Shown: positions 652-38,945 of the stretch, one piece after another
Layout of the letters: every line of letters begins with the position of its first letter
Position numbering within the stretch: position 1 is the first letter of the stretch
NCBI GenBank assembly: GCA_020058285.1
Contig: JAGVEL010000008.1
Coordinates: forward strand, 1-58,109
DNA from: Candidatus Omnitrophota bacterium
GTDB lineage: Bacteria; Omnitrophota; Gorgyraeia; JAHJTE01
DNA: 58,109 nucleotides
Direction of reading: 5' to 3'
The notes under the pieces: generated by a model
What the model saw: the letters and a program-made list of their open reading frames with translations, nothing else
Databases searched by the model: none
Told to the model about the DNA's origin: nothing
Made by a program: the position numbers and the translations under genes

Positions 652-755
652 TACGCAAAAACGCAAAAAAAACCGCAAAAACGCAAAAAATTTATTTAAC
701 AATTTTGCGCCTTTGCGGTACGGTATATATACTGGTTTTTTGCGCCTTTGCGGTT
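652..755. repeat. Degenerate REP-like repeat patch (CGCAAAAA runs and two copies of TTTTGCGCCTTTGCGGT)
   Basis: 652-690 contains ACGCAAAAACGCAAAAAAAACCGCAAAAACGCAAAAAA. TTTTGCGCCTTTGCGGT occurs at 703-720 and 737-755 and is partly complementary to the first block. It is related to the GCCGCAAAGGCTTTTGCGGC hairpins of the other REP arrays. Confidence 0.45.
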
Positions 756-3700
756 ACTTATTCGCCTTATATTTTCCTGCACTCAACAGGATAAAGCTTC
801 TATCTTGTGTAGGTATCGATAGGCTGGAAAATTCCAGGCTAATTGATTGGTCCTTAACTGTAACTGCCGGCTTGTTATCCGCCTGCTCTAAAATCGAAAG
901 AACGTCTTTACCTTGAGAATGAACTGCGCGAAGTAATGGCAATTCGCTCTTTACCACTACTACTTGCTTTGAAGTATCTAGGCCAACAAAATCTACGCGA
1001 TGCGGTTTGGTCCATTCTATTTTTACTTTTAAATCACCCTTAACCTTATCCAGATATTTTTGAGGTATATTTACAGCCCACTCATCCCAGAATTGATGCG
1101 GATGCACCACTGAGATTTTCTGCCAATTCTTTTCATTCATTAAAACATAAATGTGCAAAGAATCATTACTATTGAGTATCGGCCTAGGCGGGCACTTTAA
1201 ATCTGTGCGCATAATAAGACGCGCTCCATTCTGCTTATCTTTAATTGACCCAAAATTCATTATTAAAACATCACCTTTTTCTCCATAATAACTATGCTCC
1301 TCATCATTTTCAATCTTATTCACTTTGACAAGTTGACTATTATTATTTTTGTCAATCGCCGAGAGTGCTACCGAGGGGTCCTTATAAGACAATATCTCGC
1401 CTTCGGGCGTTGGAGCAATATTTGTGCCTTTAGGATGATCTACCTGGATTAATTTTACCATATCAATCCAGCTAGTCTCATCTTCAGAATCAACAATATT
1501 AATCAGATATTTGTTATCCTTAGAAACTAGCGGCTTCATCAATTTATAATAATCCTTGTAATACATCGGATTTCCTGCAGGCAATATATCATTGTCTTTT
1601 ATAAATTGCGAACCGTTCCATGTGTAAATATAAGGACAAGACGTACGCCGTGGCTCGCCTGAACTAAATGGAGTAACTGTAATCGTGGCTTCAAACGGAA
1701 TAAAATTAGGTTTGGTTACAGTTAGATTCATTGTGCCGGCTGAATTAACATTTACATAAACCAACACCTGTCCATTTACGCCTGTCAACTCTGTACCAAA
1801 AGCATCATTATCCTTAAGGAATGTAACCCTTGCTCCTGAAACTGGCTGGCTATTACTATCAGTAACTGTAACAATATAACCGTTATACTGGATCATCGAC
1901 GGCACATATTGCACATTAAACTGTTGAGGCGTATCTGTCCAGATAGGCATTTCCGGATCGCCCAAGAGATTCAAGGTAAAAAGATTCTTCCTGAATTCGG
2001 CAACTGTATTCGGATCAAAATTTCCGTTGCCGGCAAAATCATTTACCATATCTAATTTCATATCATAAAGTGCCTGGCCAACGCTGGATTTACCTAAAGA
2101 GAAAATCTGCTCATTAAACCTGTACAGCTCTCCTAATCCGCCACCTTGGGAAGGCGAATTCCAACCTATCCAATAATAGTCTAACCTGGAATTGCCAATG
2201 AAAGCTACTCCCCAGTCATGTATAGGAATGGTATCTTCACCTCTTAGGATTGAATCACCTAGACAATAAATATGCCCATAAGGAGGCGTAGAAGTATGAA
2301 GATCAAATTTGCCATTGTCGCAAGATTCTGCAAACACAACTGACTGCTTAGAGCCATTAGCAATATTGTTCATAAAATATACAAATCTTTGTGCACTTGC
2401 GCCATTTTGATCTACTGAAGTCCACACGCTACCATGAGCAGACCATTCAATCAAAGCTTTGCCAGCTGATGCATAGGATATAAAATTTGCTTCAGTGAGA
2501 TTAGCATCTTTTGGATAGGTATTAAGAAAATTTAATCTAAAACTTGTTAAACCAGCAGCATCTAAAAAATCATTTTTAATGTACTGCATTACTGATGCAC
2601 CATCAGTGTAATCATCTAGTTTACCTCCACAAAGCAAAGCTTCTTTTGTCCATGAGCCTACTGGAGGAGTTTTTTCATAATTGATAATTTTATTAACTAC
2701 TTTACTAATATAAGAATAGCTATTTACCGGAATTCTGCCAACATAGGTATCTAGAATCCAACGAATATCATCAGCAGGTTCACCATAAATACCATTATTA
2801 TTAGTGTCCCAATCATAGATAAATGAATCAGCAACACTGCCGCCAGCACAATCAGCAAAATAATAATCAGCCGGGACTGTTTCTGTATCAATTGGATCAG
2901 GATGCCAAGTAACCGGGCCAACGTAACGGCTGGGTAATTTTACTCCTTCAGGCGGTGGATTAAATTCCGGCATGCCTGCGCCTTGCTCGCCGGCAATCAA
3001 TAACCAGTCAAATTTCGGGCTATAAAACGGGTTGTTCGGAGGATTTACACTAGCTTCAGTTAAGAATTTCCTGATTTTTTCCTGCAGATCTGCACCGGTG
3101 TAATTTGCCTCAATATCTTCTACAGTATAAACCTTGGCTGGAATACCTTTTTTAGTCTTCCAATCAGCTAGGGGTTGAGCTGCATTGACGTTTGCAGCCA
3201 AAGTAATAATCGCATATTTTATCGGAACCTGGTCAATTGGAATGAAGGAAACGCTTTGAGTTTGTGTTGGAGATTTTAAAGCCTGGTTTTCAGAATAATT
3301 ATAAATTATGTTTTCGGCGAGTTTATCAAAAGCATCGGTTCTTTTTGCCTGCATTTCGCTATTTAATTTAGCTTTAGTTTCGTCAAGCGTATATTGAATT
3401 CTAATCGTAAAAACCTCATTAAATTTAAGCTCATTGGTTCTTAAATTTTGGATTAAAGGATTTATGCCTACGCAGATTAAACGATGGCCTTTAAGAAAAG
3501 ATTCTCCGAGATTTTTAAAAATACCTTCGGGAAAAGTAGCCAAAGTATATTTTGCTCTTGCTGCTGCTAAATTAGGCTTTACTGGTGTAGTGTCATTATT
3601 AGGTGCCATACCTTGGAATGCAGCTAAGTTTAACACCTGGCCCAAAGAGCGGGAATTAGTGCTAACCAGGCTAACGCTTACATCCTTAGCATTAAACGGA

Positions 3701-3966
3701 ATCTCAAAATAATATTTCTTATGCGGCAGAAGCGGTAAGCCTAGCACAGTATTAAGGCCAAAGCCTTTAATCTCATAATAAGCCTTGCCTCCTACGTCGC
3801 GTACAGTAAATTCCGGAATTGAAACAGAGTATTCTTTCACTATCGGAGCAGCAGAAGAGTCCAGCGCATTAAATATGAAAATAAAGCTAAAAACGAAAAA
3901 AAATGTAATAGAAATAATCAATCTCTTATTCATTTTAATTGTCCCCTTTTTAATAAAAAATCGCAA
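754..3966 (-). CDS. Secreted clan CD / family C25 (gingipain-like) cysteine peptidase with an Ig-like linker and a C-terminal module shared with the 556-aa pilin fusion
   Basis: The N-terminus looks like a signal peptide (KRLIISITFFFVFSFIFIFNALDSSAAP); an alternative ATG lies at 3933. The motif pair WSAHGS...(37 aa)...FAESCDNGKFD parallels the gingipain catalytic TGHGS...FDVACVNGDF. The His511 codon is 2434-2436 and the Cys549 codon is 2320-2322. Residues ~695-765 resemble a CarboxypepD_reg/Ig-like fold. Residues 777-1070 are homologous to the C-terminus of ORF 4735..6405. Confidence 0.8.
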   Translation of the reverse strand: MRFFIKKGTIKMNKRLIISITFFFVFSFIFIFNALDSSAAPIVKEYSVSIPEFTVRDVGGKAYYEIKGFGLNTVLGLPLLPHKKYYFEIPFNAKDVSVSLVSTNSRSLGQVLNLAAFQGMAPNNDTTPVKPNLAAARAKYTLATFPEGIFKNLGESFLKGHRLICVGINPLIQNLRTNELKFNEVFTIRIQYTLDETKAKLNSEMQAKRTDAFDKLAENIIYNYSENQALKSPTQTQSVSFIPIDQVPIKYAIITLAANVNAAQPLADWKTKKGIPAKVYTVEDIEANYTGADLQEKIRKFLTEASVNPPNNPFYSPKFDWLLIAGEQGAGMPEFNPPPEGVKLPSRYVGPVTWHPDPIDTETVPADYYFADCAGGSVADSFIYDWDTNNNGIYGEPADDIRWILDTYVGRIPVNSYSYISKVVNKIINYEKTPPVGSWTKEALLCGGKLDDYTDGASVMQYIKNDFLDAAGLTSFRLNFLNTYPKDANLTEANFISYASAGKALIEWSAHGSVWTSVDQNGASAQRFVYFMNNIANGSKQSVVFAESCDNGKFDLHTSTPPYGHIYCLGDSILRGEDTIPIHDWGVAFIGNSRLDYYWIGWNSPSQGGGLGELYRFNEQIFSLGKSSVGQALYDMKLDMVNDFAGNGNFDPNTVAEFRKNLFTLNLLGDPEMPIWTDTPQQFNVQYVPSMIQYNGYIVTVTDSNSQPVSGARVTFLKDNDAFGTELTGVNGQVLVYVNVNSAGTMNLTVTKPNFIPFEATITVTPFSSGEPRRTSCPYIYTWNGSQFIKDNDILPAGNPMYYKDYYKLMKPLVSKDNKYLINIVDSEDETSWIDMVKLIQVDHPKGTNIAPTPEGEILSYKDPSVALSAIDKNNNSQLVKVNKIENDEEHSYYGEKGDVLIMNFGSIKDKQNGARLIMRTDLKCPPRPILNSNDSLHIYVLMNEKNWQKISVVHPHQFWDEWAVNIPQKYLDKVKGDLKVKIEWTKPHRVDFVGLDTSKQVVVVKSELPLLRAVHSQGKDVLSILEQADNKPAVTVKDQSISLEFSSLSIPTQDRSFILLSAGKYKANK

Positions 3967-4180: not shown

Positions 4181-4714
4181 TCATTCCGGTCTAATAATCC
4201 GCTCAACTGCTGCTGCAACGCCTGAACCGCCTACACTAATCCACGCAGCGCCAGGTATAGCATCACGATAAAAAATACCTGTTTGGTCAACCTTAAACGC
4301 AAACCTGCCAGTAATATTGTACGCTTTAGGCTCAGCAATTGCGCTGTAGGTATTGGCGGAAAATGACTCTTGTTCTATTCTAAAATTATACCCACCTTTT
4401 GAGCCAGCTCGTAATAATTCATCAATTGAAAGTGTGGGATTAACAATAACCAGTTGTGTCAAATCCTGTGGGTAAGTTTTATATAAAGTCCGGTAAACCT
4501 CCATAGCCGCAGAAATCTTGCCTAATGAGGCAAGTGCACTAGTTTCTTTTGCATGGATATAGAGGTTTACTAAATGAGGCAGGCTCAACGCAACCAAGCC
4601 AACTATCAAACCAATAACTATGATTGCCTCAATGAGAGTAAAACCCTTGATTTTTAATCTGTGCAATTTTGTTTTTAAAATCTGTGTAATCATAATTTTA
4701 ATCTCTGTAATCAA
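4181..4714 (-). CDS. Type IV pilin-like protein (prepilin N-terminal cleavage/methylation motif)
   Basis: It has a KG|FTLIEAIIVIGLIVGLVAL class III signal with Glu+5. The globular part is paralogous to pilA and to the N-terminal third of the 556-aa protein (SALASLGKISAAMEVYR..YPQDLTQL; GYNFRIE...ITGRFAFKVDQTG). The real start is probably the internal ATG near 4693. Confidence 0.8.
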   Translation of the reverse strand: MITEIKIMITQILKTKLHRLKIKGFTLIEAIIVIGLIVGLVALSLPHLVNLYIHAKETSALASLGKISAAMEVYRTLYKTYPQDLTQLVIVNPTLSIDELLRAGSKGGYNFRIEQESFSANTYSAIAEPKAYNITGRFAFKVDQTGIFYRDAIPGAAWISVGGSGVAAAVERIIRPE

Positions 4715-4734: not shown

Positions 4735-6405
4735 CTATTTTTTCAATTGTTTATACCAACCCTCGCTAACAAATATGTAATCTATTGCTTCTCTTCTCAT
4801 TAAGCTTTGTTTGCTTGGGCTAGCAAATTTCAAGCTAATTTCATCGCCTTTATTCATAGCGGCATAACGATTATCTGAAAGCTTTAATAAATTTAATACA
4901 TCTCCGGCTCTATTGTGTTTAGCCTCGAGTAAAGCTAACTCTTTAACTTTAATTGGCACTTGCTTAGACTCATCTAAAAGCACAAAATCTAGTTTGTGCT
5001 CATCTCTCCAGGTAACCTTTATCTTTAGATTGCCTTTTACTTTATCCTTAAATGCAGCTAAATCAACTGCCCAGATATCCCAGTTTTCATGAGGATGGAT
5101 AACAGCTATTTCTTTCCATTCTTTACCTGAGACTAATAGTTCTATATGGATAGACTTAAATTCAAGGCACTCTTCCGCCTGACAAACTGGTACGCAGCCT
5201 GCCCCGTAACAACTGCTACATGGCTTACCAATACAATCATCTGGAATGCATCCCTCACCAGGGCATTCAGAGCATGGTTGCCCCACACACGGACCCGCTT
5301 GAGCAGCAAAGGCATCTTCCAAATCTGAACTTAAAATAAGGCGTAAATCTTTCTGGGTGTTTTTAACCAAACCAAAATCAAAAGTGATAAAATCTCCAGT
5401 AACACCGTGATAATTACCATTATCTTTACTGGCAACTAATTTTAAGACATCCTTGCCTTTTTTATCCGCAGCGGTAAGAGCCTTAGTCAAATTCTTGTTC
5501 TCAAAAGTAACAATCTTACCTTCTGGAGTTGGTGCAATCTTCACAGATTGCGGATGGATAACTTCTAATAAGCTAAGCCTATCCAGGTGAGATTTTTCAT
5601 CCAATGGCTCAATAATCTTAAACAGCAACTCACCCTGCTTATCCATTTTTGGAGCCTTGGTTAACTTATAATAATCAGTATATTCACCGGATTTGCCTCC
5701 TGGAATAATATCATTATCTTTAACAAATTGTTTTCCATCCCATGTATGAATATAAGGACAGCTGCCACCAGAACCACCAGTGCAGCCTGTGCCATTACAG
5801 ATAGAACAAGGTATACCAGTACAATCTTGCCCACCACTAGTGCAGCCTGCGCCATTACAGATAGAACAAGGTATACCAGTACAATCGGGAGTTGTCCCTG
5901 AACCTCCTCCACCCTCAACACCCACTGCAGTCCAAGGGCCACCTGCAGGTCCACCAGCAATAGTAGCATAATATGCGCTGCCATTTGCTTCCTGCTCGCT
6001 TGAGCCTATTTTAAAATAACGATTTCCAGTAACGCCAAATTGAGTCGGGTCAGCAAAAATCCTAAAGGCATAAGTCGGCACAACATCACTTTCAGTTGAA
6101 ACCCTAAAAGTATAACCCTGTTTTTGGCCGCTTGTTGCCCAAGCTAAATCCATCAAAGGCGGCTGGGTATTACGCAACTGGGTAAAAGTTGTGGGATATG
6201 TACCAAACATAGTGCGGTAAGCTTCAAATGCACCAGCAAGCTTATAAAGATTGACTAATGCTGCACTTTCATTATTTACCAACTTAGCCCGCAAAAAATT
6301 CGGTATTGCTATTGCCATCATCACCACTACCACCAACGACACAACAATTAACTCTACAGTATGAAACCCGGTTTTCAATATTTTCTTATTCATTTTGCAC
6401 CTCAT
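4735..6405 (-). CDS. Pilin-like fusion protein: prepilin N-terminus and pilin globular domain, Gly/Cys-rich linker, and a ~340-aa C-terminal module shared with the C25 peptidase
   Basis: It has a TG|FHTVELIVVSLVVVVMMAIAIPNF prepilin motif. Residues 1-165 are paralogous to pilA. Residues 175-208 and 372-413 carry four C-x4-CxxCxGxG-C units. Residues 216-556 align colinearly with residues 777-1070 of ORF 754..3966. Confidence 0.85.
   Translation of the reverse strand: MRCKMNKKILKTGFHTVELIVVSLVVVVMMAIAIPNFLRAKLVNNESAALVNLYKLAGAFEAYRTMFGTYPTTFTQLRNTQPPLMDLAWATSGQKQGYTFRVSTESDVVPTYAFRIFADPTQFGVTGNRYFKIGSSEQEANGSAYYATIAGGPAGGPWTAVGVEGGGGSGTTPDCTGIPCSICNGAGCTSGGQDCTGIPCSICNGTGCTGGSGGSCPYIHTWDGKQFVKDNDIIPGGKSGEYTDYYKLTKAPKMDKQGELLFKIIEPLDEKSHLDRLSLLEVIHPQSVKIAPTPEGKIVTFENKNLTKALTAADKKGKDVLKLVASKDNGNYHGVTGDFITFDFGLVKNTQKDLRLILSSDLEDAFAAQAGPCVGQPCSECPGEGCIPDDCIGKPCSSCYGAGCVPVCQAEECLEFKSIHIELLVSGKEWKEIAVIHPHENWDIWAVDLAAFKDKVKGNLKIKVTWRDEHKLDFVLLDESKQVPIKVKELALLEAKHNRAGDVLNLLKLSDNRYAAMNKGDEISLKFASPSKQSLMRREAIDYIFVSEGWYKQLKK
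5773..5886. repeat. Near-perfect 60-bp tandem duplication inside the pilin-fusion CDS
   Basis: 5781-5826 and 5841-5886 are identical except for one position (T/C at the 10th base). They encode DCTGIPCSICNGAGC and DCTGIPCSICNGTGC. Confidence 0.9.
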
Positions 6406-6451: not shown

Positions 6452-6582
6452 AAAAAAATCCTATCCTTCATTTCCAAGGATAGGATTGTACATTTTGCTT
6501 TCGGTAACCAGACTATCCTTTTAAAGAAGGACTCTTGGCTTTGCGCCCTATGCTTACGCATAGTTTGCCCTTATCGAGCATA
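6452..6582 (-). promoter_or_regulatory. c-di-GMP-I (GEMM-I) riboswitch #1 with intrinsic terminator, in the leader of the pilin-fusion operon
   Basis: The minus-strand RNA reads GGGCAAACUAUGC-GUAA-GCAUAGGGCGCAAAGCCAAGAGUCCUU...AAGGAUAGUCUGGUUACCGA. It shows the conserved GGCAAAC / GNRA-capped P1 hairpin / GGRCGCAAAGC / GGUUACCGA blocks of GEMM-I, close to the V. cholerae Vc2 aptamer as I remember it. It is followed by AAUCCUAUCCUU-GGAAAUG-AAGGAUAGGAUU-U7 (6452-6488). Confidence 0.85.
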
Positions 6583-6600: not shown

Positions 6601-6629
6601 AGTATACCACAATAAAGGCCTTATTTCAA
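6601..6629 (-). promoter_or_regulatory. Promoter driving riboswitch #1
   Basis: The minus strand reads TTGAAA (6624-6629), a 17-nt spacer ending in TGG (extended -10), then TATACT (6601-6606). The GTGGTATACTTTA box recurs upstream of riboswitch #3. Confidence 0.5.
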
Positions 6630-6791: not shown

Positions 6792-8507
6792 ATGAAAAAA
6801 ATTCCTGTTGACAAGAATTTGCTAAAAGTAACCTCGGTCAGCATTATAATCGCTTTGTTCTATTTCTTTTCATTTAGCAACATACCTAGTTTAAGCTTCC
6901 TGCAATTAAAAACCGCAGACTTTTTTAAGCAGCTCACCTATGCCATAAAACCAAAGCCAAACGAGATAAAAGACCTATGCGTGATTAAAATTGATGATGA
7001 ATCATTTATGGCCTTAAATAAAAAGTGGCCTTGGCCGCGCAGTATTATCGCCGAATTCTTAGAAAATTTGAATGAATATAAACCGAAAATTATAAGCTTA
7101 GACTTATCATTTATCGGAGAAAGTGAAAGCGTGGATGCTGATTTAAGGTTAGCTCGGGCAATCAAGAATTGTGGCAATGTAATCTTAAGTGCTTACATTA
7201 CTCCTGATGGCACTTTTAACAAGCCTTTTTTACCTTTAAGAGAAGCAGCTTTAGATTTTGGATTTGTAAATAAACCCCGGGATATAGACCTGATTGTGCG
7301 CCGGGTAAGAGTAATTCTGCCAACAGAAAAAAACCAGGAACAATTTGACTTGTCTTTTGGCCTAAAGAGTGTGTTACATTACTATTCAAACTCAGAAAAA
7401 ATTCATTTGGCTAAAATTAAGAATAATTCCTTTCTGATCAAAAATCTGGGTAATGAAAAAACAAAAAAACTGCTGTTAAGTACGGATAATCAAGGAACCG
7501 CAGCCTTAAATTTCCAGGCAAAAGATAAAGATTTCATTTCTGAATCATTCTATAAAATACTTAACAAAAGCGCGGACGCAAAATTGATTGAAGGCCGGCT
7601 GATAGCTATTGGCGTAACTGCTGAAATATTCCATGATGTCTACCCTACGACCTTAGGGATTCTCTCTGGCGTCAGCTTGAATGCCAATGAGATGTTGATG
7701 TATTTATCCGGAAACTTCCCAAATAAAGTGCCGGATAACTGGCAATTGTTTTTGATTGTTATTGCTGCGCTTTGGTCTTCAATATTAACCTATAAATTTA
7801 AAGTGGTTAAAGGCCTTATAAGCCTTTTAACCCAGCTTGTAATCTTATCGCTACTAGCCCTAGCTGCTTCTTATTTTAATTTTAGATATGATTATTTTGG
7901 CCCGATTTTTATTGCCTGCTTTATTTATGCCGGAACAGAAACTTATAAATATGGCCATTTGATTATTGAAGCTACAATATTAAAGAAGCTTTCGATTACC
8001 GACGGGTTAACCGGCTTGTACTTACACCGCTATCTAATATTAAGGCTGGATCAGGAATTCAAGAAGGCTTACGATGAAAATTCTCAATTATCGCTGTTGA
8101 TTATGGATATTGACCACTTTAAAAGAATTAATGACACCTATGGCCATGAACAAGGAAATGTGGTGTTAAAAAATATCGCCAAAATTATTCAGGATGCAAG
8201 CCGAAAGCTAGATATTGTTGCCCGCTACGGCGGAGAGGAATTCTGCGCAATATTACCCAGCACGAATGAATTAGGTGCAAATATCTATGCCCAGCGTTTA
8301 AGAAAAACGATTGAGGAGTTTAATTTCCCTTATAAGGAAAACCAGCCACTAAAGGTAACGATTAGTATCGGAATTGCCTCGTCAAAACAGACCTTGGCCC
8401 AAAATCCTGCAGAGCTTATCTCATTTGCGGATAAAGCCCTTTACCAGGCAAAAGAAACTGGAAGAAATACGGTATGCACTTTTGTCCCGCCTCCGGAAAA
8501 AATTTAA
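6792..8507 (+). CDS. Membrane diguanylate cyclase: CHASE2 sensor domain, TM segments and a GGDEF domain (active-site GGEEF, intact RxxD I-site)
   Basis: The CHASE2 signature is IKIDDESFMALNKKWPWPRS...LDLSFIGES, followed by 3-4 hydrophobic helices. The GGDEF domain shows DGLTGLYLHRY...MDIDHFKRINDTYGH...RKLDIVARYGGEEFCAILP...KALYQAKETGRN. Confidence 0.88.
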   Translation: MKKIPVDKNLLKVTSVSIIIALFYFFSFSNIPSLSFLQLKTADFFKQLTYAIKPKPNEIKDLCVIKIDDESFMALNKKWPWPRSIIAEFLENLNEYKPKIISLDLSFIGESESVDADLRLARAIKNCGNVILSAYITPDGTFNKPFLPLREAALDFGFVNKPRDIDLIVRRVRVILPTEKNQEQFDLSFGLKSVLHYYSNSEKIHLAKIKNNSFLIKNLGNEKTKKLLLSTDNQGTAALNFQAKDKDFISESFYKILNKSADAKLIEGRLIAIGVTAEIFHDVYPTTLGILSGVSLNANEMLMYLSGNFPNKVPDNWQLFLIVIAALWSSILTYKFKVVKGLISLLTQLVILSLLALAASYFNFRYDYFGPIFIACFIYAGTETYKYGHLIIEATILKKLSITDGLTGLYLHRYLILRLDQEFKKAYDENSQLSLLIMDIDHFKRINDTYGHEQGNVVLKNIAKIIQDASRKLDIVARYGGEEFCAILPSTNELGANIYAQRLRKTIEEFNFPYKENQPLKVTISIGIASSKQTLAQNPAELISFADKALYQAKETGRNTVCTFVPPPEKI

Positions 8508-27583: not shown

Positions 27584-27708
27584 CAAAAAAACCTATTTGC
27601 CAGTAGCAAATAGGTTTTTCCCTATCGGCAACTGGCTGTCCCGAAATTCCGGGACCCTTTAGCTTTGCGCCCCATGCTTACGCATGGTTTGCCCTTTTCA
27701 GATAGGCT
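27584..27708 (-). promoter_or_regulatory. c-di-GMP-I (GEMM-I) riboswitch #2 with intrinsic terminator, upstream of the PilX-like gene
   Basis: The minus-strand RNA reads CCUAUCUGAAAAGGGCAAACCAUGC-GUAA-GCAUGGGGCGCAAAGCUAAAGGGUCCCGGAAUUUCGGGACAGCCAGUUGCCGAUAGG. It is followed by AAACCUAUUUGC-UACU-GGCAAAUAGGUUU-U tract (27584-27617). Confidence 0.85.
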
Positions 27709-28962: not shown

Positions 28963-30933
28963 TCAATGCTTTTTAATCGTTTCAAGTTGTTTGCGCACCA
29001 AAGGATAAAAGGGCACAGACTGCGGGATACCTAATAACTGTTCCAATGCAGGCTTCAATTCATTTAGCTTGATATATAAAAGCCCAAGATTAAATTTTGC
29101 CTCGTAATAATTATTATTTAATTGGATTGCTTTTGAAAAATTTTTGATAGCCTCAGACTGATTACCCGTAATGGCATAAACAATAGCCAGATTATTATAC
29201 GCCTCAGGCATTTGTGGATTTAACTTCAACGCCTTTAAATATTCCTCAACAGCCAGGGTGAATTTAGCCTGATCCTTATAAACTAAACCTAGGTTGAGAT
29301 GTAATGCTGGATTATTTGGCTGCCAATAAATTGCTTTTTCAAATTCTGCGATTGCCAAATCACTTTTCCCTGCTTGATGATAAAGCAAGCCCAATTCCGA
29401 ATAAAGCGAATAATCCCAAAAAGCTGCTTTTTGAGCTAGCTTAAAAGCCTTTTCAAACTCCGAAATCGATGCTTCTAAATTTCCAGCTGCGCTATAAGCC
29501 TTGCCCAGATTATAATAAAGTGCTGATTGATTAGGCTCCTTCTTAACTCCTTGTTTAAAAATACCGATTGCCTTTTTAATTTGGCCTTTTTTGAAATATA
29601 ATTTTCCCAGATTATTCAGCGCAAGCCCATCCTTAGAATTTAATTGAAAGGCGCGCCAATAAAACTTCTCTGCCTCTTGATTCAAACCCCTTGCCTCTAA
29701 TTCTGCTCCCAAATTATTATACGCAGCAAAACTCCCTGGAGATAACTTAATTATGCGCAGGTAAAATTTAATCGGATCAGACCAGATCATGCCGTAGAGA
29801 AACGTTGCAAATGAAAGCATGATAATCACCGAAAACAGGCTTAAATATAAATAGCGCCGCTGCCTTCCCTCAAGAACCTTAAATAAGCCTAAGAGAATTA
29901 TGAAAAATAAAGGATATTGCGATAAATAAATAAAATGCTCGGCAAAATAAGCATTTATCGGAAAAATTCCCGATTGGCTGGTTAAAAAAATAAAAAACCA
30001 AAAAAAGCAAAAATAGAATGCTTTTTTTTCTTTCCTTAAAAAAAATCCTAGAAATATAAAAAATAATACAACAACAATCAGGCGTGCCAGAACAATGAAA
30101 CTAAAAGAGTTAAATACAACTGAAGTATAAGACATGTGCAGATTAACCGGCCAAAAAACAAGCTTTAGATAATCAAATAGATAATAACCAAATGTCCATA
30201 GCCGCGGCAAAATTCCAAAGGTGCTATGTCCAAGCGTAAAACCTAAAACAAAAAACCTAAGAAGTAAATATATTGCACCTAAAATTAAAAAGACTAAATA
30301 ATTTTTAAAGTTAATTTTTTTATCAAGAAGGTAATCAATTAAAACAAATACTAATAAACCGCTTAAGGCTAATTCCTTAGATAGTAACGCAAGGAAGAAG
30401 AAAATACTTGAAAAAATTAGTAAACGCCGGGATGGGGTAATCCGAAACTTAACATAAAATATAAAAGAAAGAGCTAAATTTAAAAGTACTAAGGAATCAG
30501 CCCGGCCAGAGATATAGCTGACAACCTCAACGTTTATCGGATGGACTAAAAAGATACAGGCAGAAAGAAAGGCAATTAGCCTTTTTTTAAAAACAAGTGT
30601 AAATAAATAATATAATAAGAAAGCACAAATAACATGCAGCAAGATATTAGTCAAATGCATTCCGGCAAATTGATTTCCCCATACAAGGTTATCCAAAAAC
30701 AAAGAAAGAGATTGAACCGGCCGATAAAAATTATTACCGATTACAGTCAGGAATAGCCCGCTGGTAAATATATACGGCAATAAACGAAATTGTTTTATCA
30801 GAGGATTATTTACAACTAGCCCTAAGTCATCCCAGACTAAAGCAGCAAAAAAAGATTGGCTATAAATAATTATTCCCAGGATTAAGAAAAATAATAATAT
30901 CTGCCTATTTGAAATATGTTTAGTTTTTATCAT
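28963..30933 (-). CDS. TMTC/PMT_2-like GT-C membrane glycosyltransferase with C-terminal TPR repeats (paralog 2)
   Basis: The first-loop acidic motif is ALVWDDLGLVVNNPLI, followed by YRPVQSLS and HLTNILLHV. It has ~10 TM helices and then 7-8 TPR units (YNNLG.., A...Y..AL.L.P). Confidence 0.7.
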   Translation of the reverse strand: MIKTKHISNRQILLFFLILGIIIYSQSFFAALVWDDLGLVVNNPLIKQFRLLPYIFTSGLFLTVIGNNFYRPVQSLSLFLDNLVWGNQFAGMHLTNILLHVICAFLLYYLFTLVFKKRLIAFLSACIFLVHPINVEVVSYISGRADSLVLLNLALSFIFYVKFRITPSRRLLIFSSIFFFLALLSKELALSGLLVFVLIDYLLDKKINFKNYLVFLILGAIYLLLRFFVLGFTLGHSTFGILPRLWTFGYYLFDYLKLVFWPVNLHMSYTSVVFNSFSFIVLARLIVVVLFFIFLGFFLRKEKKAFYFCFFWFFIFLTSQSGIFPINAYFAEHFIYLSQYPLFFIILLGLFKVLEGRQRRYLYLSLFSVIIMLSFATFLYGMIWSDPIKFYLRIIKLSPGSFAAYNNLGAELEARGLNQEAEKFYWRAFQLNSKDGLALNNLGKLYFKKGQIKKAIGIFKQGVKKEPNQSALYYNLGKAYSAAGNLEASISEFEKAFKLAQKAAFWDYSLYSELGLLYHQAGKSDLAIAEFEKAIYWQPNNPALHLNLGLVYKDQAKFTLAVEEYLKALKLNPQMPEAYNNLAIVYAITGNQSEAIKNFSKAIQLNNNYYEAKFNLGLLYIKLNELKPALEQLLGIPQSVPFYPLVRKQLETIKKH

Positions 30934-32671
30934 TATTAGTCTTTAAATTATCCAAATGAGCCCGAATTTTTTTATCTGTTGGCTCAATTGATAATCCTCT
31001 AAGCCAGATTTTTTTCGCCTTATCCGGCTGGGCACGGTTTACATAAATCACTCCCAGATTATAATATGCCTGCATATTCTCAGGGTCAAGTTTTAAAATG
31101 ATATTTAATTGCCTTATCGCCTCTTCTGCTTCGCCTATTTTTGCTAAAAGTGCTGCTAAGTCATTGCGGGCTAAATGAAAATTTTGATCAATAGTTAAGG
31201 CGCTAATGTAATGATTGCCGGCGCGAGGTAACTCGCCTTTTTGAAAATACAACACGCCTAAATTATAATGCGTCATCTTTATTCTTTCGTTTAATTTTCC
31301 CTCTAAAATACTTTTATCCGGATAGTACTTAAGGCTAATTTTGCTCAAAAGCTCTCTTGATTTATAGTATTGATTTAAAGCAAGTTCATAATTACCTAAA
31401 AATAAGTACTCATTGCCTAGATTTATCCGTAACCGAGCGCTTGCCGGAAAATATTTAAGAGTCCATCTATAAAAACTGATGTTATTCTTCCAGTTAATAT
31501 TATAAGTGCTTGTCAATATCCCGAAAAATAGAACCAGGCCGCAGCAAATAATAATTAATAATCTTTGCTTTGCCGCATCAATTCTCCAAAAGATAAACAG
31601 TCGGCTAAAGATATAAGCAACATAGTAGAAAATGCTCAAACTGGCAAGATACAGAAAATGCTCTGAAAAACTAATATTCGTAAGTATAATATTAGATTGT
31701 GAAAAAATAAGAATTAAAAAAAAGATTGAGAAAAAAAGAAATAGCCTCCGGCGCTCCTTCCCTCTCGATAAGAAAACAAACCCGGTAAGTAAACTTACGG
31801 TAGTTATAAATACCCAGGGGTCAAAAAAAGATGTCGGTTTAACTAAGGCTCTTTCCATATGGAGATTTTCCGGCCAAATCAACAGCTGTAAATAAAACGG
31901 TATACTTTTTATAAATGTATAAAGCCTTAAAGGAAATTCCTGGATGAATAAACTGGGCACTCTTAACGAATTGCTAAATCCCAAAGCATTAATCCTTAAA
32001 ATAAGATAAATTATAACCGTGATTATAAATAATACGTATTGATAAATATACTCTTTTTTAAATCTATTAAAACAAAAATCAAATACAAAAAATAATAAAG
32101 GGCTTGCAAGCGCATATTCCTTAGATAACAGAGCTAAAAAGAAAAATAGTGCAGATAAAGCAAACGCGGTGTATTTATTTCCTTGCCTAAATTTTATAAA
32201 GAAATAAAAAGATCCCAAAACAAATAAGGCAGCTAAGGGATCAGCCCGACCCGAGATGTAGCTAACTGCAGAATGTTGTATCGGATGGACAACAAAAAAT
32301 AAAGCGCTCAAAATTGCCAAGATTGAAGATGCGCCAAGATTTAAAAGGATAAGATACGCAAAGATAGCAGTTAGGATGTGAATTAAAAGGTTAGTTAAAT
32401 GAAATCCAAAAGGATTGTCCTGCCAGAAAAAATAATCAATTGCATAACTTATGAGTTGCAGCGGACGGTAGTAACTAGTTTTGTTGTCAGGCGTGTCTCC
32501 GGGAAAAATATCATTAGAGAAAGCATAACGTGTTGCCGAACCCATACTGCGGATGTGAATGTTATCCTTAACCAAAAATTCATCATCCCAAACAAAACCA
32601 TTAAACAGGCTATTGTAATAAAACAATAACCCAGCAAAAATGATTAAAAGAATTTGTGTTTTTTTACTCAT
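30920..32671 (-). CDS. TMTC/PMT_2-like GT-C membrane glycosyltransferase with C-terminal TPR repeats (paralog 1)
   Basis: It shares the architecture of paralog 2 (FVWDDEFLVKDNIHI, YYRPLQLIS, HLTNLLIHI), with multiple TM helices and C-terminal TPRs. Confidence 0.7.
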   Translation of the reverse strand: MSKKTQILLIIFAGLLFYYNSLFNGFVWDDEFLVKDNIHIRSMGSATRYAFSNDIFPGDTPDNKTSYYRPLQLISYAIDYFFWQDNPFGFHLTNLLIHILTAIFAYLILLNLGASSILAILSALFFVVHPIQHSAVSYISGRADPLAALFVLGSFYFFIKFRQGNKYTAFALSALFFFLALLSKEYALASPLLFFVFDFCFNRFKKEYIYQYVLFIITVIIYLILRINALGFSNSLRVPSLFIQEFPLRLYTFIKSIPFYLQLLIWPENLHMERALVKPTSFFDPWVFITTVSLLTGFVFLSRGKERRRLFLFFSIFFLILIFSQSNIILTNISFSEHFLYLASLSIFYYVAYIFSRLFIFWRIDAAKQRLLIIICCGLVLFFGILTSTYNINWKNNISFYRWTLKYFPASARLRINLGNEYLFLGNYELALNQYYKSRELLSKISLKYYPDKSILEGKLNERIKMTHYNLGVLYFQKGELPRAGNHYISALTIDQNFHLARNDLAALLAKIGEAEEAIRQLNIILKLDPENMQAYYNLGVIYVNRAQPDKAKKIWLRGLSIEPTDKKIRAHLDNLKTNNDKN

Positions 32672-33578: not shown

Positions 33579-33696
33579 AAAAAAACCTATTCCAGTTACC
33601 TGAAATAGGTTGCTCCATTGGTAACTGGCTACCCTTTTTGCAGGGCCCTTTAGTTTTGCGTCCCATGCTTGCGCATGGTTTGCCTTTTTCAATGAT
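33579..33696 (-). promoter_or_regulatory. c-di-GMP-I (GEMM-I) riboswitch #3 with intrinsic terminator, in the pilA leader
   Basis: The minus-strand RNA reads CAUUGAAAAAGGCAAACCAUGC-GCAA-GCAUGGGACGCAAAACUAAAGGGCCCUGCAAAAAGGGUAGCCAGUUACCAAUG. It is followed by AACCUAUUUC-AGGUAACU-GGAAUAGGUU-U7 (33579-33611). Confidence 0.85.
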
Positions 33697-35072: not shown

Positions 35073-36773
35073 CTACCCCTCGCTGGCTACACGCAAAACT
35101 TCCTCAAATGTAGTCATGCCTAATTTAAATTTACGCAACATATCATCCCAAATAGTCTGCATAGCGTTATGTTTAACCGCATAATCCTTAATCTCATCGC
35201 TTGAGCTCTTCTTAATAATCATACCACGTATTGTATCATCAAACATCAAAACTTCAAGTGCGGCAATCCTTCCGAAATATCCAGTATTATTACAATGGTT
35301 ACAACCTCGTCCAGTGTAAAAAATCTGATCCTTTGTTGGTTTTATGGAGAATCTTTTAACTATCTCATCTGGAACATCTACTGGTTCTTTGCAGGAGTTA
35401 CAAATTTTACGGCACAGCCTCTGGGCGCAAGTCATAACAATTGATGAAGATACAAGGAACGGTTCAACGCCCATATCAATTAAACGCGTAATTGCGCCGG
35501 CAGCATCATTTGTATGTAACGTTGAAAAAACCAATTGGCCGATTAGAGATGCTCGAACAGCTATATCTGCAGTTTCAGAATCACGAATTTCACCAATCAT
35601 TATAATATCCGGGCTTTGGCGCAATATTGCCCGTAAGCCTGCAGCAAACGTTAGACCGATATCGGGCTTGACATGAATCTGGGTTATGCCTTCAATCTGA
35701 TACTCAACAGGATCTTCAACGGTAATTATATTTCTATCCGTGGTATTAAGCCGGTTTAGTATGGAATATAACGTTGTAGATTTTCCGCTTCCGGTTGGAC
35801 CGGTAACTAAAATCATACCATAGGGTTTTTCTATTGCCTGACGGAATAATTCCATTGGCTCAGGAAAGAATCCCAGTTTTTCTAAACCCATTGATAAACT
35901 TGATTTATCCAAGGCTCTTAAAACAAATTTTTGGCCAAAGGTTGTAGGTAAGGCTGAAACTCGAAAATCCACTTCTCTTCCTTCGAATCTAATCTTAAAT
36001 CTTCCATCTTGAGGAAGCCTGGCCTCAGTAATATCCAATCCACTCATAATTTTTAATCGAGCCATAACCGCGTTTTGGTTAATGCGCGGAAGCGTAAGGA
36101 TATCGTGCAAGCTTCCGTCTATACGATAGCGCACGCGTAACCCATCTTCAGTAGGCTCAACGTGGATATCACTTGCCCGTTTATAAAGGCTCTCCGCAAC
36201 AATCAAGTCAACAACCTTTACGATAGGCGCCCTTTGGCTCTCTTCTATTACAGCTGAAACCTCCATTTGCCCGGCTTCTATACTTAAGGTACGAGTCTGA
36301 TCAGATTCTTCCTCAAGCAGCGAAGAAATAACTGCTGTTTCCGGGTGATAATATTTTTCAATTGCCTTGCGTATATCTGATTCTGTAGCCAGCACCGGAT
36401 CAGTATCCTTGCCAGTCAAAGCCCTTAAATCATCCAAGGCAAAGATGTTCATTGGATCGCTCATCGCTACCGTAATCGTAGAGCCAATTTGCGAAACACA
36501 AATCAGATTATATTGGCGCGCGAGCCGTTCAGGTATAATCTTGATTATATCCGGGTCAATCTTATATTTTGATAGATCGAATGGCGGCAGTTTTAATTCT
36601 TCAGAAAGAACAGCTAATAATTCCTTATTCGTAATCATGCCTTCATTGAGCAGGATATCTTTAACCGAATCTCTCTTTTGCTTCTGAAAAGTCAAAACCT
36701 GTTGCTTCTGCTTAGGGGTTATACGCTTGGTTTTAACCAGGATATCTAATATTTTTTCATTTAATGTATTCAT
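35073..36773 (-). CDS. pilB: PilB/GspE-family assembly ATPase (paralog adjacent to pilC)
   Basis: It has a T2SSE_N domain, Walker A GPTGSGKST, the Asp box, Walker B IIMIGEIRD, a His box, and a tetracysteine motif (CNSC...CNHC). Confidence 0.85.
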   Translation of the reverse strand: MNTLNEKILDILVKTKRITPKQKQQVLTFQKQKRDSVKDILLNEGMITNKELLAVLSEELKLPPFDLSKYKIDPDIIKIIPERLARQYNLICVSQIGSTITVAMSDPMNIFALDDLRALTGKDTDPVLATESDIRKAIEKYYHPETAVISSLLEEESDQTRTLSIEAGQMEVSAVIEESQRAPIVKVVDLIVAESLYKRASDIHVEPTEDGLRVRYRIDGSLHDILTLPRINQNAVMARLKIMSGLDITEARLPQDGRFKIRFEGREVDFRVSALPTTFGQKFVLRALDKSSLSMGLEKLGFFPEPMELFRQAIEKPYGMILVTGPTGSGKSTTLYSILNRLNTTDRNIITVEDPVEYQIEGITQIHVKPDIGLTFAAGLRAILRQSPDIIMIGEIRDSETADIAVRASLIGQLVFSTLHTNDAAGAITRLIDMGVEPFLVSSSIVMTCAQRLCRKICNSCKEPVDVPDEIVKRFSIKPTKDQIFYTGRGCNHCNNTGYFGRIAALEVLMFDDTIRGMIIKKSSSDEIKDYAVKHNAMQTIWDDMLRKFKLGMTTFEEVLRVASEG

Positions 36774-36778
36774 AGTGC

Positions 36779-38494
36779 CTAAGTCGTGCTTTCGTCTGGG
36801 GCAGTTAAGCGTAAAACCTCTTCCAGCGAAGTTACGCCGTCAAGCGCTTTTTCAATACCCACTTCCCTCAGAGTTTTCATTCCTTCTTTTCTGGCTAAAA
36901 TTTTTATAATTGATTCTGGCTGGTGAGTAAGTATTAATTCTTTAACTTTTGGACTTAAAAATAAGATCTCCAAGATTCCTGCCCGGCCAGCATATCCGGT
37001 ATTAAAACAAGCTTTACAACCTTTGGGCGCAAAAAATTGACTGCCAGATTTTATAATCAGTTTTTGGGCAATATCCGGCTTTATCGTATACGGCTCTTTG
37101 CAGTGCTCGCATAATTTTCTCAATAATCTTTGAGACATTATCGCAATTATACTTGAGGCAATCAAAAAAGGTTCCACACCCATATCAATAAGCCTAATTA
37201 TTGAGCCGGCGGCTGTCGTAGTGTGCAATGTGCTTAAAACAAGATGTCCGGTTAATGCTGCTTTAATCGCAATATCTACAGTATCAAAATCGCGAATCTC
37301 GCCGATCATTATAATGTTTGGATCTTGCCGTAATATTGAACGCAAACAGCTGGCAAAAGTAAGACCAATCTCGGCATTGACACTAACCTGGTTAATCCCG
37401 CGTAGTTGATACTCTACTGGATCTTCAACGGTAATAATATTTTTTTCCGGATTATCAACAAATTTAAGTATTGAATAAAGCGTGGTTGTTTTTCCGCTAC
37501 CTGTGGGACCGCAAGTAAGAATCATACCGTAAGGTTTAGCGCTAGATTTTTTTAAAATATCTAACGAGTGTTTATCAAAGCCTAATTTATCAATATCCAG
37601 CGTTGCCGTGGATTTATCCAAAATTCTTAAAGCAACTTTTTCGCCAAAGCTTGAGGGTAAAATTGAAACTCTAAAATCAACCTCCCGGTTTTCGATCTTA
37701 ATCTTAAATCTGCCGTCTTGGGGAAGGCGGTGTTCAGCAATATCTAAACCAGACATAACTTTTATTCTGGAAACAACTGGTGGATGCAGTGCTTTTGGCG
37801 GAGCTTCTATTTCTTTAAGCACCCCATCAATACGCAGCCTCACCCTCACCTTGCGCTCAAAAGGTTCAATCAAAATATCCGAAGCCTTAGCTTCAATACC
37901 TTGTTTTAAAAACAAATTAGTAATCTTTATTACCGGCGCTTCCTGGGTAAGGCGGGCTAATTCCTGCGTATCCATATTATCCTGCTGCTCATCTTGAACT
38001 AACTCCAAAGCTTTATCCTTACCCATATCATCAATAATCTGTTCTATCGCCTGATAAGAAGCCTCGCCGTAATATTGAGTAATGGCGTTCAATACATCTT
38101 CGGGCTTGGCAATAATCGGATTTATATCAAAACCAGTTAATGTCTTTACCGCATCCATTGCAAAAACATTAAGCGGATCAGCCATGGCTAACGTCAGGGT
38201 ATTGCCCATCTTTGAAACAGGAATAATCTGATAGTGCCGGGCTGTTTCGTGCGGAATTAGGCTGGTTACTGCAGGGTCTATTTTAAACCGGGATAAATCT
38301 ATAGGCGGAAGCCCTAAGCCTTCGCTTAAGGCAATGATTAAATCTTTTTGGCTGATAAACCCCAGACGGACCAGGATATCACTTAATCTACCGCCCTCTT
38401 TGCTCTGGACATCTAGGGACTTATCTAAATTTTCACGCGTAATTAACTTGTTCTTAATTAATATTTCTGTCAGGCGCTCTTTTAATGAAACCAT
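36779..38494 (-). CDS. Second PilB/GspE-family ATPase paralog
   Basis: It has the same architecture: Walker A GPTGSGKTT, IIMIGEIRD and CEHC...CKAC. Its N-terminus carries two partial MshEN-like 24-residue motifs (RLTEILIKNKLITRENLDKSLDVQ and RLSDILVRLGFISQKDLIIALSEG). Confidence 0.85.
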   Translation of the reverse strand: MVSLKERLTEILIKNKLITRENLDKSLDVQSKEGGRLSDILVRLGFISQKDLIIALSEGLGLPPIDLSRFKIDPAVTSLIPHETARHYQIIPVSKMGNTLTLAMADPLNVFAMDAVKTLTGFDINPIIAKPEDVLNAITQYYGEASYQAIEQIIDDMGKDKALELVQDEQQDNMDTQELARLTQEAPVIKITNLFLKQGIEAKASDILIEPFERKVRVRLRIDGVLKEIEAPPKALHPPVVSRIKVMSGLDIAEHRLPQDGRFKIKIENREVDFRVSILPSSFGEKVALRILDKSTATLDIDKLGFDKHSLDILKKSSAKPYGMILTCGPTGSGKTTTLYSILKFVDNPEKNIITVEDPVEYQLRGINQVSVNAEIGLTFASCLRSILRQDPNIIMIGEIRDFDTVDIAIKAALTGHLVLSTLHTTTAAGSIIRLIDMGVEPFLIASSIIAIMSQRLLRKLCEHCKEPYTIKPDIAQKLIIKSGSQFFAPKGCKACFNTGYAGRAGILEILFLSPKVKELILTHQPESIIKILARKEGMKTLREVGIEKALDGVTSLEEVLRLTAPDESTT

Positions 38495-38501
38495 TTAAGA
38501 T

Positions 38502-38945
38502 TTATTTATAGTATTTCTTAATTGCTTCCCGAATATCAGAAGTTGTGCTGACAAAAGTCTGTACCTTGCATTTGGTAAGCATCTCTATATCTTCTATGGC
38601 CTGGACATTTAACGGATTAGACATGGCAACCGTAAGTGAATTGCCAATTTTATCTATTGGAATGAGGCAATATTGGACGGCGACATTATTAGGAATTAAA
38701 TCCACAACATTAGCATCTATTTCATAATTTTTTAAAGGTAAATACGGAAAGCCATATTGTGCAGTTAAGGCATGGGCAATATCTTCTTCGCGGGCAAAGC
38801 CCAACTCCACCAGAATCTCACCGATGAGCCCGCCCCTATCCTTTTGAACCTCTAAGGCTTTTTCTAGCTGTTTGGCTCCGATGACTGCCCGCTCAATCAG
38901 CAGCTCGCCTAATTGCTTTGTCATTATTCTCTTAAATGTAGTCAT
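38502..38945 (-). CDS. Stand-alone T2SSE_N / MshEN-like domain protein (no ATPase domain)
   Basis: It is 147 aa with tandem motifs QLGELLIERAVIGAKQLEKALEVQ and LIGEILVELGFAREEDIAHALTAQ. These are followed by GFPYLPL...LIPIDKIGNSLTVAMSNPLN, typical of GspE/PilB N-terminal domains. Confidence 0.75.
   Translation of the reverse strand: MTTFKRIMTKQLGELLIERAVIGAKQLEKALEVQKDRGGLIGEILVELGFAREEDIAHALTAQYGFPYLPLKNYEIDANVVDLIPNNVAVQYCLIPIDKIGNSLTVAMSNPLNVQAIEDIEMLTKCKVQTFVSTTSDIREAIKKYYK

Follow-up and report, generated by a model that had tools for sequence, protein, structure and literature searches.

A c-di-GMP-I riboswitch with a separate intrinsic terminator, probably an OFF switch, upstream of a pilin-fusion operon in Omnitrophota

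Closest described systems

The sequence analysed here, referred to as the window, is a 58,109-nucleotide (nt) stretch of a Candidatus Omnitrophota genome (GenBank assembly GCA_020058285.1, contig JAGVEL010000008.1, positions 1 to 58,109). The element in question is a leader on the minus strand, upstream of a gene encoding a pilin fusion, which carries an aptamer of the cyclic dimeric guanosine monophosphate class I (c-di-GMP-I, also called GEMM-I) followed by an intrinsic terminator. This copy is called rs1, and its two paralogues in the type IV pilus cluster of the window are called rs2 and rs3. Features of the window lie on the minus strand unless stated otherwise.

Several described riboswitches resemble this arrangement. 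Cd1, a transcriptional OFF switch located upstream of flgB in Clostridioides difficile, likewise combines a class-I aptamer with a separate terminator that can coexist with it, and its read-through in the ligand-free state relies on an antiterminator whose formation opens up part of the ligand pocket (PMC9262584); in the window leader the corresponding antiterminator is a proposed one. However, Cd1 controls flagella and has a long expression platform, in which the decision falls near nt 148, whereas the window leader has a spacer of 12 nt and a pilin-like cargo. Moreover, the Cd1 antiterminator takes up pairs that close the pocket, while that proposed for the window would use the upper 3' strand of helix P2.

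The GEMM-Ib riboswitch upstream of pilM in Geobacter metallireducens, an ON switch responding to 3'3'-cyclic GMP-AMP (cGAMP), has a homologous fold, acts on transcription and precedes pilMNOPQ, which parallels the position of rs2 (PMC9262584). It differs in having A at the position of G20 and a terminator that overlaps the aptamer, whereas in every window copy this base is G and the terminator lies clear of the aptamer. Vc2 from Vibrio cholerae shares the pocket bases G20, A47 and C92 and the interhelical C-G pair with the window copies (PMC4744006, PMC5888326), but it has a GAAA loop and an 11-nt receptor, whereas the window copies have GUAA or GCAA loops, a short P2 and no receptor, which is the alternative form of the family (PMC1950547). 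Vc2 is also reported to be a translational switch (PMC9262584), in contrast to the terminator-based leader described here. Cdi-2-4, the c-di-GMP-II riboswitch of C. difficile pilA1, is located directly upstream of a major pilin gene and acts by transcription termination (PMC6366702); its class II fold is, however, unrelated, and its logic is the opposite of that proposed below, as c-di-GMP allows read-through. Finally, Rfam family RF03167 provides the best covariance model for the window copies and has the same compact 80-nt architecture with a short P2, but its consensus has G at the A47 position, where the window copies have A.

Identity of the aptamer

The whole window was compared with all 4227 Rfam families using cmscan (E values refer to the whole window). 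The only matches were one 16S rRNA fragment and three full-model riboswitch matches, all on the minus strand. The rs1 aptamer at 6499..6578 matched positions 1-80 of the 80 positions of RF03167 (c-di-GMP-I-GGC) with 69.7 bits and an E value of 1.8e-14, against a gathering score of 59, and this model was the best one, above its gathering score, at all three copies. The initial annotation of this DNA had placed a GEMM-I aptamer here and named a match to RF01051 as its check; the match to the clan is indeed significant, well beyond what chance would give, although the best model is RF03167 and not RF01051. The Rfam calls show only the best member of clan CL00126. The gathering score of RF01051 is 35, and a search of sub-ranges showed that exactly one further family of the clan, whose name is not displayed, also exceeds its own gathering score at the rs1 locus.

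All motifs quoted in the initial annotation were found on the minus strand: GGGCAAAC at 6570-6563, the hairpin CUAUGC-GUAA-GCAUAG at 6563-6548, GGGCGCAAAGCC at 6548-6537, the second stem CCAAGAGUCCUU / AAGGAUAGUCUGG at 6538-6508 and UUACCGA at 6507-6501. In the cmscan alignment, each helix of the three-helix junction is present, that is P1 (6576-6575 with 6503-6502), P1a (6568-6567 with 6544-6543), P1b (CUAUGC-GUAA-GCAUAG, 6563-6548) and P2 (6540-6506), and the number of non-canonical pairs flagged is 0. The bases that contact the ligand in Vc2, G20, A47 and C92 (PMC4744006, PMC5888326), correspond to 6569, 6542 and 6504 in rs1, and they are G, A and C in all three window copies. The interhelical Watson-Crick pair, C44-G83 in Vc2, is universally conserved and has been described together with an AAA linker (PMC4744006, PMC1950547). 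Its equivalents in rs1 are C6545, located in a 3-nt bulge after P1b, and G6513 in the AG bulge of P2, while the AAA linker occupies 6542-6540; we infer that C6545 and G6513 form the tertiary pair. The P1b loops of rs1, rs2 and rs3 are GUAA, GUAA and GCAA (GYRA), and P2 is short, with bulged A residues near its base and without an 11-nt receptor. The second common form of GEMM also has no 11-nt receptor, and the GNRA loop receptor occurs in P2 only when the loop is GAAA (PMC1950547).

The consensus lines of the two Rfam families differ at the first unpaired base after P1a (GACGCAAAgC in RF01051 vs GACGCGAAgC in RF03167). Based on these two lines, we take GGC, the name of the variant defined by Weinberg et al. 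2017, to denote the bases at positions 20, 47 and 92. In this region rs1 and rs2 have CGCAAAGC and rs3 has CGCAAAAC, with A and not the G of RF03167, and the same position is A in 24 of 24 related Omnitrophota aptamers and G in none (0/24). When ten related Omnitrophota aptamers were classified, the best model was RF01051 in eight and RF03167 in two, with similar scores; RF01051 was also the best model for the orthologues of rs2 and rs3 in the closest relative. Membership in RF03167 was rejected, as the G that defines it at the A47 position is A in all window copies. Likewise, GEMM-Ib, whose criterion is A in place of G at the G20 position (PMC9481103), was rejected, since this position is G in rs1 (G6569) and also in rs2 and rs3. 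The elements of the window were thus filed as canonical c-di-GMP-I because the canonical contact bases are present and the change from A47 to G is absent. We conclude from the sequences that the RF03167 call is most likely a product of competition between models on a compact aptamer. There is very little doubt that rs1 is a c-di-GMP-I riboswitch, which would be expected to bind c-di-GMP; in other respects it is an unremarkable representative of a riboswitch class that is among the commonest.

Paralogues and relatives

The two further copies that had been reported in the type IV pilus cluster are both present. The rs2 element (27585..27704) comprises an aptamer at 27623-27702 (66.2 bits) and a terminator, AACCUAUUUGC...GCAAAUAGGUU-U7, at 27585-27614. 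The rs3 element (33579..33695) comprises an aptamer at 33616-33693 (65.2 bits) and a terminator, AACCUAUUUCAG-GUAA-CUGGAAUAGGUU-U7, at 33579-33609. Each of the three copies has a promoter-like site and an intrinsic terminator of its own. The rs2 element lies upstream of a PilX-like gene and the pilMNO/secretin genes, and rs3 lies between pilC and the gene for a 142-amino-acid (aa) major pilin. At least 13 further Omnitrophota loci have an equivalent of rs3 after pilC.

The full neighbourhood of rs1 is kept in three relatives (L004, L007 and L008) in the order S1 protein, tyrosyl-tRNA synthetase, divergent CHASE2-GGDEF cyclase, leader, pilin fusion, pilin and C25 peptidase. The leaders of these loci and of L001 all consist of a TTGAAA...TATACT promoter, a GEMM-I aptamer and a terminator. 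A covariance model was built from five such aptamers and used to search 1.09 Mb from 85 sources, of which 80 were Omnitrophota pilC loci and the others the window and the orthologous loci. This gave 24 matches with E values up to 0.01, typically directly after pilC, as in rs3. In these 24 aptamers both sides of the pair had changed in 16 of the 21 pairs, and none of 500 shuffles reached the observed values; the alignment was fitted to the model and favours the structure, but the margin is large. Sliding the partners decreased pairing from 83% of cells to 24-47%, and P1a alternates between G-C/C-G and G-C/U-A in ten sequences. A full-text literature search found no published description of such riboswitches in Omnitrophota; the three papers that it returned, among which a work on ComFB receptors appeared in two versions, deal with other subjects.

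Some of the related leaders depart from this pattern. Among the rs1 orthologues, only L007:3692-3778 (GCA_017973895.1) has A in place of the G equivalent to G20 (AAUAGCAAAC), a base typical of the cGAMP-selective GEMM-Ib aptamers, and its sequence suggests that this operon may answer a different dinucleotide in the sister lineage. In L004:3749-3916 and L008:3640-3807 a structured insertion of ~86 nt separates the first hairpin from the closing strand of P1a, and the Rfam score falls to 32 bits, but the remaining parts of the aptamer are present, as is the terminator. In the element that follows pilC in Candidatus Velamenicoccus archaeovorus LiM (L021:11320-11601), the first hairpin is interrupted by an insertion, and a unit of ~47 nt stands twice in tandem between P2 and the 3' strand of P1. 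The equivalents of G20 and C92 are A and U, respectively, and the conserved CCUAUUC...GAAUAGG terminator follows; judging by these bases, the aptamer may be decayed or re-specified. In L001 a second GEMM-I aptamer (2565-2684), which bears a receptor and has RF01051 as its best model, lies in front of a gene for a small pilin, a short distance upstream of the riboswitch of the pilin fusion, so that two riboswitch modules follow each other within 1.3 kb.

Leader architecture

The leader begins with a putative promoter, a sigma-70-like site (TTGAAA-17-TGgTATACT, 6601..6629) recognised by consensus match only (10/12 positions, with an extended -10 TG), from which transcription would be expected to start near 6594-6591. 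In the 5' to 3' direction the promoter (6629-6601) is followed by ~15 nt, the 80-nt element (6578-6499), the 12-nt spacer, the terminator hairpin and the U tail. The hairpin (6457..6487, predicted energy -15.9 kcal/mol) consists of AAUCCUAUCCUU, the loop GGAAAUG and AAGGAUAGGAUU. The consensus scan gave a 12-bp stem, with the 5' arm at 6487-6476, the 7-nt loop at 6475-6469 and the 3' arm at 6468-6457. The initial annotation had described a 12-bp terminator with U7. The stem was recovered, but two bases of the U run at 6458-6452 close the stem, leaving 6452..6456 as the tail, and the terminator can be read either as 12 bp with U5 or as 10 bp with U7. The aptamer end at 6499 and the start of the 5' arm at 6487 are 12 nt apart and share no bases, and the minimum-energy fold of the full leader holds the aptamer hairpins and the terminator together.

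Rfam, the terminator scan and the gene context all supported the earlier description of an aptamer with an intrinsic terminator upstream of the pilin fusion and the 177-aa pilin. The placement upstream of a 556-aa gene starting ~45 nt after the terminator was correct as to order, while the distance from the U tail to the likely start codon is ~58 nt and not 45, because the likely start is the second ATG at 6393. This makes a protein of 552 aa the likelier product.

Switching direction

The initial annotation had the riboswitch gating the operon without giving a direction; gating is supported, and the anatomy points to an OFF switch. Two designs have been described, that of Cd1 (OFF), in which aptamer and terminator coexist and compete with an antiterminator, and that of pilM (ON), in which aptamer and terminator are mutually exclusive (PMC9262584). 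The window leader was assigned to the Cd1 type because its terminator and aptamer share no base and coexist in the minimum-energy fold, and it follows from this design that c-di-GMP probably terminates transcription. The call was not rested on folding energies alone.

A candidate antiterminator strand, AAGGAUAG, lies at 6513..6520 and consists of the upper 3' strand of P2 with the AG bulge, in which the G of the interhelical pair is located. Its sequence recurs exactly at the beginning of the terminator 3' arm and is therefore complementary over 8 nt to the 5' arm (CUAUCCUU, 6483-6476). In a transcript ending before the 3' arm, these two strands pair with a probability of ~0.98. The energy of the duplex with the 5' arm is -9.9 kcal/mol (p = 0.013 vs shuffled arms), and an exact complement of 8 nt has P ~0.024 under a null model that preserves the terminator hairpin. 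The aptamer and antiterminator folds of rs1 are nearly iso-energetic (-33.7 vs -32.7 kcal/mol), as are those of the full leader (-40.0 vs -39.5 kcal/mol), where in the latter fold the 5' strand of P2 also takes the 3' arm of the terminator. Complementarity between the 5' arm and the aptamer in 19 related leaders gave a combined p of ~3e-6, for sequences that are related and not independent. In rs3 a 9-nt complement was found between CCAGUUACC, which comprises the base of P2, the C92 equivalent and the first base of P1, and GGUAACUGG in the loop and 3' arm of the terminator (P ~0.0016), and it is kept in the orthologue L009a. In rs2 the 3' strand of P1 pairs with the 5' arm in the minimum-energy fold of the truncated transcript. 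Two other strands were considered for rs1. The 3' strand of P1, used in the usual design, was rejected because nothing in the 5' arm is complementary to CCGAAAGC, and the 3' strand of P1b, which has a C·C mismatch (5 + 4 bp), was ranked below the perfect 8-nt complement in P2.

Taken together, the leader would be a transcriptional riboswitch composed of a canonical class-I c-di-GMP aptamer (GYRA loop, no receptor) and a separate intrinsic terminator. Transcription would begin ~15 nt upstream of the aptamer. With c-di-GMP present, the ligand would bind at the three-helix junction (G6569, A6542 and C6504) and lock P1, P1a/b and P2, leaving the 5' arm (6487-6476) only its own 3' arm to pair with, so that the hairpin and U tail would form and the polymerase would stop before the genes. 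At low c-di-GMP, P2 would open and AAGGAUAG (6520-6513) would pair with CUAUCCUU of the 5' arm as the antiterminator; the 5' strand of P2, GUCCUUC, could in addition take GAAGGAU of the terminator 3' arm. The genes for the 552-aa pilin fusion and the 177-aa pilin, and perhaps that for the C25 peptidase, would then be transcribed by read-through. Copies rs3, in front of the major pilin gene, and rs2, in front of the PilX-like/pilMNO/secretin genes, would follow the same design and logic.

Several results weigh against this proposal. When the energy gained by the whole transcript from upstream pairing of the 5' arm was compared with that of shuffled arms, the control was not significant in rs1 (62/200) or rs3 (118/200) and only suggestive, without correction, in rs2 and four relatives. 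The antiterminator strand differs among the three window copies and from that of most relatives (the P1b 3' strand), and because of this the pairing has no clean covariation support. PilB ATPases with MshEN domains, which are c-di-GMP receptors (PMC12448109), are encoded in the same cluster, and their presence looks contradictory to repression by c-di-GMP unless the circuit is deliberately incoherent. As to the aptamer, the RF01051 score of rs1 itself is hidden by clan filtering, and as to transcription, none of the public sequencing runs contains the stretch. Because the stricter control was not significant for rs1 and rs3 and the partner strand varies, we consider c-di-GMP-dependent termination at rs1 probable rather than firmly established, assign a smaller share to the opposite direction and leave the rest to altered specificity or decay.

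The opposite direction, in which the same aptamer and ligand would prevent termination and c-di-GMP would induce the pilin-fusion and pilus genes, appears unlikely. It would fit the biology of the cluster, where MshEN-domain PilB ATPases and two GGDEF cyclases are encoded beside the pilus genes, as well as the known riboswitch-controlled pilus operons, which are ON (PMC6366702; PMC9262584). Many GEMM terminators overlap P2, which yields ON logic (PMC1950547), and the non-significant antiterminator control in rs1 also speaks for this direction. However, the 5' arm of the window terminator begins 12 nt past the end of the aptamer and has no base in common with P1 or P2. Locking of the aptamer by ligand cannot keep the terminator from forming, as the minimum-energy fold contains both. 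The 3' strand of P2 is a copy of the 3' arm and not of the 5' arm, the reverse of what an ON design needs (PMC1950547), and no anti-antiterminator relay was found in the 12-nt spacer.

It is improbable that the leader is decayed or independent of ligand, with the hairpin attenuating transcription constitutively or terminating a transcript that comes from upstream. The ~86-nt insertion in L004 and L008, the V. archaeovorus LiM copy with its insertions and changed pocket bases, and the replacement of the A before C44 by G in rs1 and rs2 could be taken as signs of decay. In rs1, however, the conserved core bases are all intact and the full model is matched with 69.7 bits; compensatory changes preserve the fold in three paralogues and several orthologues, and G/A variation at the bulge position before C44 is common among intact relatives. 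Moreover, no transcription converges on the terminator, as this strand carries no gene upstream and the neighbouring gene is transcribed divergently. Still less probable is a specificity variant, either a true c-di-GMP-I-GGC member or a 3'3'-cGAMP (GEMM-Ib) sensor, for which the RF03167 calls above the gathering score at all three copies and the A at the G20 position of the L007 orthologue, a sign that specificity drifts in the lineage, would speak, but which is contradicted by A and not G at the A47 position and G and not A at the G20 position of the window copies, by the RF01051 calls of relatives with the same pocket bases and by the GGDEF cyclases flanking the loci, and no gene resembling a cGAMP synthase was noticed in the window, where no search was aimed at one.

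Conserved terminator base

The base of the terminator, CCUAUU(C/U)...(G/A)AAUAGG with the U run, is nearly invariant behind the GEMM-I aptamers of Omnitrophota (6457-6487, 27585-27614 and 33579-33609 in the window, and ~20 related loci). This near-invariance spans loci whose PilC proteins are only ~60% identical, and the aptamer helices of the same set change freely. The pattern occurs 32 times in 1.13 Mb, and nearly all of these occurrences lie downstream of a detected aptamer, belong to duplicate loci or to the palindromic reverse strand of such sites, or lie just after pilC with a divergent aptamer. At two sites after pilC (L027 and L047) the pattern was found and an aptamer was not detected. 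The other terminators of the window are unrelated GC-rich stems without this base. Sequence conservation of this kind is unusual in a terminator.

In most relatives the best partner of the 5' arm is the GNRA loop together with the 3' strand of the first hairpin, e.g., GAAAGAAUGGGG with CCCAUUCUUU(GA). The window copies have one mismatch in this pairing of the GNRA loop and P1b and seem to use other strands. The sequences offer a lead, rather than a finding, suggesting that strand invasion via the tetraloop could be the usual antiterminator of the family.

A wider reading, which we put forward only tentatively, joins these observations: the platform would be conserved in sequence across the phylum, its 5' arm would invade the first hairpin, and genes for the pilin, for pilus assembly and for the pilin fusion would be repressed by c-di-GMP at the level of transcription, which would form an incoherent circuit with the MshEN PilB motors. 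The base may be fixed as CCUAUUC...GAAUAGG because the 5' arm must invade the first hairpin of the aptamer. The exposed GNRA loop may serve as a toehold, with CUUUU of the arm pairing with GAAAG and CCUAUUC pairing with the 3' strand of P1b, and docking of the loop driven by the ligand may protect the hairpin, a route unlike the usual exchange of P1 strands.

Regulated genes and pilus context

The first gene downstream of rs1 (4735..6393) encodes the 552-aa pilin fusion. The maximal open reading frame (ORF) starts at 6405 and has 556 aa, but the likely start, the ATG at 6393, is preceded by GAGGUG conserved in the orthologues, and the database gene call also has 552 aa. Its N-terminus resembles that of a prepilin (G|FHTVE), and the protein also contains two beta-sandwich domains and Cys-rich linkers of the pattern CxGxPCSxCxGxGC. 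The Cys-rich repeats (such as CTGIPCSICNGAGC) flank both domains, and those of the second linker are present only in the window copy and absent from its six relatives. These six, all from Omnitrophota, were the only relatives found among 5.8 billion clustered proteins; one is labelled Candidatus Omnitrophica, and the related loci come from Omnitrophota metagenome-assembled genomes. An exact-protein look-up of the 556-aa ORF gave no match, and comparison with Pfam and NCBIfam gave weak pilin/GspG matches, below the cut-off and to the N-terminus only. The AlphaFold model is moderate (mean pLDDT 59.5; beta domains mostly ~70-88), and a Foldseek search of it against the PDB gave no match with E <0.001 and query-normalised TM-scores of at most 0.18. 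As modelled, the domains can only be called beta-sandwiches, and a more specific function is not assignable.

The second gene (4181..4714), a 177-aa pilin-like ORF with a GFTLIE prepilin motif, follows the first in all orthologous loci. The two pilin genes are followed by a gene for a C25 (gingipain-family) peptidase of 1070 aa with Ig-like domains (754-3966), whose co-transcription is uncertain because the gap of 215 nt contains a promoter-like site. A functional connection of this peptidase to the pilin fusion is suggested by its presence at the same place in L004, L007 and L008. On the plus strand, divergent from the leader, lies the gene for a CHASE2-GGDEF diguanylate cyclase (6792..8507; GGDEF 9.3e-50, CHASE2 1.6e-37), found in the same position in L004, L007 and L008. 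The 5' end of a 16S rRNA gene (1-425) runs off the left edge of the window.

In the pilus cluster, the cargo of rs3 comprises the major pilin, TPR/PMT-like partners and minor pilins, and that of rs2 comprises the PilX-like, PilM, PilN, PilO and secretin genes. The genes for the major pilin and the minor pilins are separated by those for two large TPR proteins (28963-32671), one of which has a PMT-type (protein mannosyltransferase-like) N-terminal region, and a role in pilin glycosylation is possible, judging by their sequences. Directly upstream of pilC lie genes for two PilB-type ATPases with N-terminal MshEN domains (35073-36773 and 36779-38494), a stand-alone MshEN protein of 147 aa (38502-38945) and a HAMP-GAF-GGDEF cyclase (38948-40393). 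As the cluster encodes both a GGDEF cyclase and MshEN proteins, c-di-GMP is read at the RNA level and at the protein level.

Implications for Omnitrophota

The points of note are the probable OFF logic for pilus genes, the deployment of three copies in one pilus system, the mislabelling by Rfam and the conserved terminator base. For annotation, pipelines based on Rfam will label these elements 'c-di-GMP-I-GGC' despite their canonical pocket. If the OFF direction is true, c-di-GMP represses pilus transcription, which is the reverse of the class II riboswitch of C. difficile pilA1 and of the cGAMP riboswitch of Geobacter pilM, both of which are ON. Transcription of the pilus parts would then fall while the motors sense c-di-GMP, which is either a tension with the OFF reading or an incoherent circuit. 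Should the wider reading of the conserved platform also be true, it would describe a pulse-generating incoherent circuit for pilus production in ultra-small, possibly host-attached bacteria. With three c-di-GMP riboswitches, two cyclases and ATPases of the MshEN type, both the type IV pili and the lineage-specific pilin fusion come under c-di-GMP control in Omnitrophota, which provides a firm regulatory handle on an uncultured phylum.

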